Shown piece by piece: positions 6,001 through 9,000 of a DNA stretch of 26,266 nt. Source of the stretch: a virus (Duplodnaviria > Heunggongvirae > Uroviricota > Caudoviricetes). The position numbers are program-made. How positions within the stretch are numbered: the first letter of the stretch is position 1; every line of letters starts with the position of its first letter. The stretch lies in the IMG/VR virus record IMGVR_UViG_2534682139_000013, one strand, 5' to 3'.

Positions 6001-9000
6001 GGCGTGTATCTGTCGCGGTCTCTATCCAGGACGCCAATCCCGACGCCAGATTTTGCTGGCGCGTGAGGAATATAGCCCCGAATAAATCATCGCGTCAATC
6101 ACCTTGTTTTCCTCGCACGATGTCTTAGCCACCGGATATCCCACAGGTGAGCCGTGTAATTGAAGGTTTTTACGTCAGATTCTTTTGGGATTGGCTTGCG
6201 TTTATTTCTGGAGCGTTTCGTTGGAAGGTATTTGCAGTTTTCGCAGATGATGTCGGTGATACTTCGTCGCTGTCGCCTCATGCCGCCCTCCTGACGCCCT
6301 GCCCGATCGCCATCAATGCCGCTTTGGATACAGTAGTAAACATTCGTCGAGGACTGATGAACGGTCGCCAAATCAGCAGCATGGAGCCTTTGCTGTTTCC
6401 CTTCTTCTCCAGCCCTGTCGATGGTTCGATAAAATTAATCCGTCCATCAGTGATGATGCGAACTTCGTCAACACTCTCCAGAGCCTTGCTGAACCATCCG
6501 ACTGACATATCCTCTGGCACAAGCATAACTACCGTCTGTCGCTGTTGTATGCACTGCTCAGCGGCTTTTTCCACCCACGGCCTGATATTGCTGTACGGTG
6601 GGTTATTCCAGATTGCACCGTGGCTTACCCACTCAGAATTGAGCGCGTCGTCGGCCTCAGTTAGCCAGTGAGCGCACAGAGCATTTTTGTCGCTCGCTGC
6701 CGAATCCAGCCAGAATCCAAACTCAATATCCAGTGCATCAAAAAGCCAAAGCGGCGTTTGCCAGCAGTCCTTGTCGTGTGCTGGCGTATTTGATTTGATA
6801 GTCATGCAGCCCTACCTTTTCGTTGTGACCATTCATACTCTCGCCGGGAGTCATCACTCCACCGCACGTTGCGCTCTGAGCCGAACCAGAACATGATTTC
6901 GATAAGCTCAGTCATGCTGGCCTTCCGCATTTTGCTGGTACGCACGCCAAGCATGACAACGCCACCGTCGATACCAGGCACACTTCGTTGCTCCAGTTTT
7001 TTGGTCTTAAGCCACAGGGCAGTGAACAGGTCTTTCCAGTCTTCCGGCGCCAGCCGTTGACCATGCCATAGCACCTGACGCGAAACATCGTTCAGCATCG
7101 GCCACATGCGGTCATTCTGCGCTTTGCTGCGCTTGGGTTCTTTAACGTGGACTTCGTGGGGTGACTTGTCGTCGATGGGTAGTGAGAGAATGGCGTCTAT
7201 GGCGTTATTTCTGATTGCTTCGTTGCGAAGCAGAAAGGTTTGCTTCATCTCCTGCTCTCCGGTTCCATTTTTCAGCCGCCGCAGCAACTGATGGTGCCCA
7301 TGCCCCCCTGGCTTCACAGAGGTCACATTCTGCATAGCCCCACACATCAATATTTATTCCGGCCTCAACCCACAGACGAGCATTACCGCCGCAAAACGGA
7401 CATTCTTTTAGCTTTGGCTGGGTTAATGATAGGTCGCTCATGCTCACTCCTTCACTTTAAATCCAGACTCCGGATAATTCTGTTGCGCTGAAACTCATTG
7501 TTGAGTTTGAACAACCGTCGAAGAACACGGTCACGCGGATAGCGTCGTGCGGCAGGTGAATGCTCATACAACTCATCAAGCGGCAAACTGGACGATGAAC
7601 GATACCGATACCAACGCACCAACTCCTCACGAAAATTAGCCCTGACAAGCTCAGCTATCGTACTCATTTCTTAAAACCTCCTCAAACGCATTCTGACGCA
7701 TTTTTCATTCTCGCTGCTTATTGGCATGCCTTGCACGCGTTTACCTCGCTACAGAGCGATTGTGATGCCTTAAAAGCGATTTATTGAAGTGATATTTGCT
7801 TAATCGAAATTCTTTTCTTTGATTCCTGCGGCCCTGATGGCTTTCATTACTGCAATTACCGTTTTGTCACGCCCATCCTCATAACCCATCGCATAAGCAC
7901 CTTCTTCACCATCTTTCCAAAAGTCGTCATTCGATTCGGGCCAGTCGATATCCAGTTCAATAGCAGAGCGCGATGCCTGCCATATCACCCAGGCAAACTC
8001 TTTTAATTCATCGTCTCCCGTGAACTGGCTTTTGTCTTTTGACCACCAGTTTTCAAACTGTCGGTAGCTATCGTTCACTTCCCTCTCCCCCAAATAAAAA
8101 GGCCTGCGATTACCAGCAGGCCTGTTATTAGCTCAGTGATGTAGATGGTCATCTTTTAACTCCATATACCGCCAATACCCGTTTCATCGCTGCACTCTGG
8201 CGACACTCCTTAAAAATCAGGTTCGTGCTCATCTTTCCTTCCCGTTCTTCCCTGGTAGCAAACCGGTAATACACCGTTCGCCAGACCTTACCATCAATGA
8301 CCAGGATTCCTGCCCGCGCCATTTTAGCCGCAGCCTGATTTATGCTGGTTACGGTTGCGCCTGTTACCGCGGAAACGTCCTGTGCACAGAAGTTCTTATG
8401 CGTCCCGAGGTAATGAATAATTGCCTCTTTGCCCGTCATACACTTGCTCCTTTCAGTCCGAACTTAGCTTTAATTTCTGCGATCTTCGCCAGCGCCTGAA
8501 CACGATTTAGAGGTCTGCCGCCCATGACAGGAAGTTGTTTTACTGGTTCAGGTATCGTCTCACCACGGTTAATTCGTGCTGTCATACAGGTCAGTTCATC
8601 GGCAGCCTTGCGCCGTAATTCCGCGTCAGTCAGCGCATTGGCCCGCATGTTCTGGTACAGGTTGGTAACCAGCCAGTAGTGCGCGTTTGATTTCCACGGA
8701 TAAGACTCTGCATCCGGATACAGGCCACGCTTCCGGCAATACTCGTAAACCATATCAACCAGCTCGCTGACGTTTGGCAGTCCGGCGATAACGGATGCTT
8801 CTTCCCGGCACCATGCAACAAACTGCCCGGGTGATGGAAGAAATGGTCGATTCTGCCGACGGGCTACGCGCATTCCTGCGTTAACCTGTTCCATCGAGGT
8901 GATCCCGTTTTCCCGGAAAGCCAGAACCCACTGGCGGCGGATTTCATTCAGTTCGTTCTGGTCCCGGTTAGCCAGACTCGCCGGGAAAGTTGCCAGTAAC

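Follow-up and report, generated by a model that had tools for sequence, protein, structure and literature searches.

The window analysed here, the whole 26,266-nucleotide stretch of IMG/VR virus record IMGVR_UViG_2534682139_000013 in which all coordinates below are positions, carries a Dam-type methyltransferase gene (dam) and a gene for a Lar-like zinc-ribbon protein (lar) on either side of ninB. A preliminary description of this sequence had proposed that the two genes act together as an anti-restriction pair, protecting phage DNA from host restriction on entry or induction. Our analysis instead points, with high probability, to an ordinary stretch of nin region in which the methyltransferase M.EcoVT2Dam and a Lar-family zinc ribbon are carried as independent cassettes. 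The window is an Stx1a-converting lambdoid prophage. Its whole length matches the Stx1a prophage adjoining torS, as in the O103:H2 strain FWSEC0007. A 1.7-kb block of the region matches the DNA of several Stx1a-converting phages at 100% identity and that of VT2-Sakai at 99.8%, and it is also found at 100% identity in many chromosomes of Shiga toxin-producing E. coli. The genes already carry the PGAP/RefSeq labels "phage N-6-adenine-methyltransferase", "recombination protein NinB", "Lar family restriction alleviation protein", and "NinE family protein", so that both genes were known and annotated before and nothing in the gene identities is new. The significance beyond correct annotation is slight, since the methyltransferase had been cloned before and the Lar label comes from standard pipelines.

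The methyltransferase gene is the open reading frame (ORF) 6805..6278 on the minus strand, encoding 175 residues, and a Dam-type enzyme with an NPPY motif lies where the preliminary description had placed it. The product matched PF05869 at 218.4 bits (cut-off 28.1), with residues 4-169 aligned to profile positions 1-167 of 169, and the TIGR01712 equivalog model at 265.9 bits (cut-off 97.05), a family that also takes in the Dam enzymes of T1 and HP1. The catalytic (D/N)PPY motif is present as NPPY at residues 68-71, encoded on the minus strand at 6604..6593, where the reverse complement AAC CCA CCG TAC was read directly. A Pfam scan at E ≤ 0.01 gave PF05869 only, with no match to the alpha-class family PF02086 (MethyltransfD12), and a sequence search of the PDB with Dam gave no match. 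All 175 of the 175 residues are identical to the dam product of VT2-Sakai, BAA94133, and on this full-length identity the enzyme can be named as M.EcoVT2Dam. The VT2-Sakai gene likewise stands between ninB and ninE and encodes the same NPPY, and there is no difference at the protein level; the copy in the window differs in residing in an Stx1a prophage with insertion sequences (ISs) in cII and int. The enzyme had also been called an orphan, and this holds because the annotation of the matching 26-kb prophage segment includes no restriction endonuclease; the genes flanking dam are ninB and ninE.

The passage of PMC6602927 that names M.EcoVT2Dam, citing Radlinska and Bujnicki 2001, lists this enzyme as an orphan methyltransferase with 5'-GATC-3' as its known target, and N6-methyladenine (m6A) methylation of GATC by the Dam of the window would carry over from this literature on the identical protein. 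E. coli host Dam has the same reported target and the same product and is likewise an orphan, but it belongs to the alpha-class family PF02086, unlike the much smaller phage enzyme of PF05869. The shared GATC specificity of the two enzymes is best seen as convergence, which has been argued for another phage GATC methylase (PMC7556043). If M.EcoVT2Dam methylates GATC in this phage, replicating phage DNA would exit the cell fully Dam-methylated whatever the capacity of the host Dam. A plausible benefit would be the full methylation of fast-replicating DNA, guarding it in the next host against methylation-sensitive GATC cutters or against undermethylation effects, and the protection would extend to these cutters and effects only.

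The second gene lies at 7441..7205 on the minus strand, preceded by the ribosome-binding site AAGGAG 6 nucleotides upstream of the ATG at 7441, and encodes a protein of 78 residues that is indeed a Lar-like zinc ribbon, as first described. It scored 41.3 bits against PF14354 (cut-off 28.6) and 62.3 bits against TIGR03655 (cut-off 39.6), matched phrog_599, "Lar-like restriction alleviation protein", at 9e-39, and is 100% identical to VT2-Sakai H0103. The motifs CPFC (residues 14-17), CDLC (39-42), and WNRR (59-62) are all present, giving the two CxxC knuckles and the C-terminal A..AWNRR helix of the family, and in an alignment of 43 family members C14, P15, F16, C17, C39, C42, and W59 show no variation, with N60 and R62 almost as constant. 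An AlphaFold2 model, built from an input alignment that did not include a RalR row, predicts a beta-hairpin zinc knuckle and, C-terminal to it, a helix spanning residues 52-67 (pLDDT 82). Foldseek of this model against the PDB gave no significant neighbour, the best match being dsRBD-like at E ≥ 0.3, and a PDB search by sequence gave marginal matches to the eL43 zinc ribbon only (E = 0.009); these searches therefore provide no mechanistic lead.

Rac Lar, or RalR (b1348, 64 residues), is the only characterised member of the Lar family, and the reports on it conflict. In citations of King and Murray (1995), Rac Lar is reported to alleviate type I restriction and to enhance modification, whereas Guo et al. 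(2014, PMC4041452) state that restriction modification is left uninhibited by RalR and describe a DNase toxin with a small RNA (sRNA) antitoxin, RalA. The protein of the window and RalR belong to the same Pfam and TIGR family, share the Cys4 knuckles and a helix with WNKR/WNRR, are 36% identical over 58 residues, and are both encoded by small early genes of lambdoid prophages. They differ in location, as lar lies upstream of ninB in the nin region of the pR operon and Rac ralR in the pL region after recET, and in a 14-residue C-terminal extension that overlaps ninB in the window and that Rac RalR does not have. Lambda Ral shares with the Lar-like protein a proposed activity only, the alleviation of type IA restriction through enhanced modification; no sequence relation was detected, and a Pfam scan of the Lar-like protein gave PF14354 only. 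By analogy with Rac Lar, the Cys4 zinc ribbon would shift type IA complexes toward modification, and modulating these restriction-modification complexes in this direction is its most likely activity. An anti-restriction role for each of the two genes separately would be reasonable. Caution is warranted, as the name "restriction alleviation" on thousands of Lar-family genes goes back to the single, contested Rac Lar experiment; the Stx-phage Lar allele is itself very common.

Alternatively, the Lar-like protein could be a small non-specific DNase or toxin, as Guo et al. describe RalR, or another nucleic-acid-binding zinc ribbon, with the phage Dam supplementing host Dam mainly for regulation or the stability of lysogeny. 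The report of the RalR/RalA system and the RefSeq name of ralR in MG1655, "endodeoxyribonuclease toxin", favour the first part of this explanation. The similarity to RalR does not extend to equivalence, however, as the Lar-like protein scored 27.6 bits against the RalR equivalog model NF007260, for which the cut-off is 113. No RalA homologue was found in the 26-kb window, unlike in the Rac type I toxin-antitoxin system, and a search of the window for an antisense partner found no complementarity to lar mRNA outside the locus longer than 13 nucleotides. The predicted fold also lacks a nuclease signature, with no PDB match better than E = 0.3, and a toxin gene without an antitoxin, translationally embedded in an early operon, would be unusual. 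For the part that concerns Dam, stable lysogeny of 933W needs host Dam and Phi24B dam was detected in lysogen cultures (PMC3342100), by which the literature points to lysogeny stability as a possible role of phage Dam enzymes. GATC is also depleted across the window, which has 63 sites where shuffled sequences predict 111 ± 9.5; this depletion is notable in a phage encoding a GATC methylase and in keeping with a regulatory or lysogenic role. Taken as a whole, we regard this explanation as unlikely. A GATC-free stretch of 2.2 kb at 6309-8480 covers nearly all of dam, ninB, lar, a gene encoding a DUF7301 protein, and ren; by our estimate, this gap alone is non-significant at the observed site density.

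The reading as independent cassettes also draws on the layout of the locus. The order lar-ninB-dam on the minus strand confirms that the two genes flank ninB in the nin region. The ninB gene, for an Orf-family recombination mediator of 148 residues (PGAP name "recombination protein NinB"), lies at 7248..6802 on the minus strand (PF05772, 165 bits; phrog_72), and ninE, at 6281..6099 on the same strand and encoding 60 residues (PF05322, 148 bits), closes the coupled string lar-ninB-dam-ninE. The overlapping stop and start codons that had been attributed to both genes are found on one side of ninB only: ninB/dam at 6805-6802 and dam/ninE at 6281-6278 overlap as ATGA, while the 3' end of lar and the first 44 nucleotides of ninB (7205-7248) are shared in different frames, which is not a stop/start overlap. 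In lambda the order is ren-ninB-ninC-ninD-ninE, and here dam fills the slot of ninC-ninD, whereas a hypothetical gene, the DUF7301 gene, and lar form an insertion relative to lambda between tR2 and ninB. The DUF7301 gene (7667..7452, minus strand, 71 residues; PF23975, 91.5 bits) ends 10 nucleotides ahead of lar and is co-inherited with the lar-ninB-dam block in all close relatives. A 174-residue ORF on the plus strand, 6147..6671, runs antisense to dam, and we take it as a shadow of dam.

Between ren and the nin genes, a terminator scan identified an intrinsic terminator at 8123-8100 on the minus strand, in which a T run comes after an 8-bp stem containing 6 GC pairs; this hairpin probably corresponds to tR2, as its position matches that of the lambda terminator between ren and ninB. 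No promoter or terminator match was found within 6099-7800 in the promoter and terminator scan. Since lar, ninB, dam, and ninE lie downstream of the tR2-like terminator with no internal promoter or terminator matches, we infer that they are carried on the delayed-early section of the pR transcript, which depends on antitermination. The four tightly packed genes would then be read from pR only after transcription has passed the terminator, and their products would be unable to act at entry, which speaks against the proposal that they protect the incoming DNA.

Whether dam and lar form a cooperating pair can be judged from how they are inherited. In such a pair, Dam would pre-methylate the progeny and Lar would disarm or re-programme type I enzymes, so that the phage is protected on entry or induction, and the anti-restriction annotations on both families, the tight packing of the genes around ninB in what would be one transcript, and their co-inheritance within the Stx haplotype all favour it. 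The two genes nevertheless assort independently, and in both directions. The dam allele is present in 1566 of 5426 complete E. coli genomes (~29%) at 2193 places, and the lar allele in 486 of these genomes at 682 places (the whole block in 487 genomes). Among phage records, the dam allele (at least 95% identity) was found in 244, lar in 119, and the dam family in 1908. Three different upstream contexts are found in front of one and the same dam allele. In phage ev017 the order is ren-ninB-dam, with a NinB that is 45% identical and with no Lar gene, and in an Stx2a phage the same dam stands behind a NinB-like gene (25% identical), again without a Lar gene. Conversely, Salmonella prophages encode a Lar homologue that is 49% identical, with the same C-terminal tail and the same 44-nucleotide overlap with ninB, and there it is followed by ninB-ninE-ninF without dam in six of six places.

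A wider census of Lar genes gave the same picture. A word-indexed protein search for Lar returned 6 near-identical matches with no diversity, and an exhaustive profile search was used instead, which showed the family to be very large (6930 representative clusters at E ≤ 1e-3). Neighbours were then counted for 80 taxonomically diverse Lar loci, 73 of which had a delimitable Lar ORF, taking two same-strand neighbours per side (269 ORFs). No PF05869 methyltransferase was present among these 269 neighbours of the 73 Lar genes. The methylases that did occur were C5-methylases (PF00145) in 11 cases and an N6_Mtase in one; 8 of the 11 C5-methylases could be traced to their loci by a motif check, and 7 of these 8 belong to one Collinsella lineage. 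Other neighbours were typical early-region phage genes, including RusA, RecT, YopX, dUTPase, Thy1, DUF551, and further Lar copies. Lar genes and methyltransferases thus share a type of neighbourhood and form no module. A general link of Lar genes to methyltransferase genes or to recombination genes was considered and found no support in this census. As separate observations on the family, extra Lar copies are among the commonest neighbours of Lar genes, and many Lar representatives (P0007-P0154) repeat the Lar domain in tandem, two, three, or more times, or form part of larger fusion proteins of up to 1081 residues.

Within the close relatives, dam and lar also differ in how well they are preserved. 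The lar gene is frameshifted in 7 of 79 close IMG/VR relatives (~9%; loci L010, L056, L072, L075, L024, L049, and L025), and each of the 69 loci scored has a full-length dam. Four of the seven frameshifted alleles carry a +1 change at a run of six G residues in the coding strand of lar (7303..7308, minus strand), a recurrent frameshift site that leads to a product of 56 residues, and in L025 a deletion of 1 nucleotide fuses the Lar reading frame to NinB. Clusters of "partial" Lar proteins in the protein database (P0003, with 82 member sequences, and P0005), at 56 and 48 residues, fit such frameshifts. In 933W and Min27 lar was matched in two pieces, and lar in 933W is apparently frameshifted as well. 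The loss of an intact lar in these relatives is a further point against a pair.

Nor would the two proteins converge on one target, as host Dam already modifies GATC and type I enzymes are blind to GATC methylation. Co-occurrence beyond one recent haplotype, the mark of a two-gene anti-restriction module, was not found: dam occurs without lar, and a Lar homologue occurs without dam. On the independent assortment, the GATC target shared with host Dam, and the conflicting reports on Lar, the claim that the genes act together is not upheld, which leaves the preliminary interpretation partly supported, and we consider a cooperating pair quite improbable. The dam and lar genes behave as separate cassettes that can be exchanged within a mosaic region and did not, on this reading, co-evolve as a two-component system.

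Several observations weigh against this reading of independent cassettes with separate roles. Both genes are present in all 69 IMG/VR loci with enough flank, all of them close relatives, and the string DUF7301-lar-ninB-dam-ninE is inherited whole within the Stx haplotype (69 of 69), as a functional unit would also be; these NinB-anchored loci all have NinB at least 97% identical and thus represent a single haplotype that alone is unable to test independence. In E. coli, lar is almost never found without dam. Some of the frameshifted lar alleles could be sequencing errors, as they lie at a homopolymer run. Searching the literature for experimental work on the Lar-like protein of Stx phages or on phage "Lar-like" genes yielded annotation-level mentions only, and a review-style statement (PMC7556043) calls the function of Dam enzymes in phages "still not well understood".

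The close association of lar with ninB raises the question of a tie to recombination, in which the Lar-like protein would be a partner or regulator of NinB/Orf and not of dam, for example by protecting unmodified recombination products. The lar gene always abuts ninB and overlaps it by 44 nucleotides, in E. coli as in the divergent Salmonella allele, and the C-terminal tail recurs in a third divergent allele (P0038); in Rac, recE-recT immediately precedes ralR, and RecT and RusA are among the neighbours of other Lar genes. The 269 neighbours of the 73 Lar genes, however, include only 1 RecT and 2 RusA, and neither neighbour scan has NinB in its list of the 25 commonest families. NinB alleles without Lar occur in lambda, ev017, and Stx2a phages, and the shared tail could be explained by the 5' overlap of ninB serving as a recombination junction. 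A functional tie to recombination is therefore very improbable. Also very improbable is a scheme in which the Lar-like protein is a general modification enhancer that acts also on the phage Dam, or jointly on host type I methyltransferases, making lar and dam in the Stx haplotype a methylation-boosting unit and the G6 tract a slippage switch (on/off or to a Lar-NinB fusion).

Even with dam and lar taken as independent cassettes, the state of this particular prophage bears on whether they could act on induction. Two 1310-bp copies of an IS3-family element are inserted on the plus strand, at 10393-11702 and 24212-25520, with TGAACCGCCCCGGG ends and ALIL frameshift elements, and they are 96-98% identical to each other over two compared stretches of 300 nucleotides. 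The first copy, delimited by alignment to strain FWSEC0007, the ALIL frameshift element, and the repeat pair, interrupts cII near codon 3, on the stretch that separates pR/cro from the O-P-ren-nin genes; the second lies in the integrase gene. The closest reference strain has an IS in gene O instead. This copy of the prophage is probably unable to excise, and the IS in cII likely impairs expression of the lar-ninB-dam block. Protection on induction is doubtful for this prophage because transcription from pR would have to cross the IS to reach these genes.

Several neighbouring features of the prophage may also be recorded. Directly after ninE, the minus-strand interval 5877-6075 matched three Rfam families, isrK at 75.5 bits, C4 antisense RNA at 66.7 bits, and the c4-a1b1 target at 50.5 bits; a promoter-like site (6098-6069) and a terminator (6007-5991) accompany it. 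The antirepressor gene ant (5824..5090; ORF6N and P22_AR_C) follows just downstream of these matches, and the arrangement looks like an RNA-controlled antirepressor module of the P1/P7 immI or Gifsy IsrK type inside the nin region.

In the pL operon of lambda, ral sits just after N, and the same slot is occupied here by a gene encoding the "nucleotide modification associated domain 5" (Nmad5) at 15986-16609 on the plus strand (PF18757, 240 bits), directly downstream of N. This gene is another candidate for DNA modification or anti-defence in the prophage. The N gene itself is probably intact, as the 127-residue ORF at 15541-15924 (plus strand) is a full-length match to the N antiterminator peptide family PF25694 (58.5 bits); PGAP marks only a 69-nucleotide "incomplete" N remnant at the 3' end of this ORF in the reference genome. 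Adjoining the stx1 operon, Rfam matches were found to STnc100 at 1045-1258 on the minus strand (191 bits) and to the anti-GcvB sRNA AgvB at 984-1043 on the plus strand (56.6 bits, at threshold).

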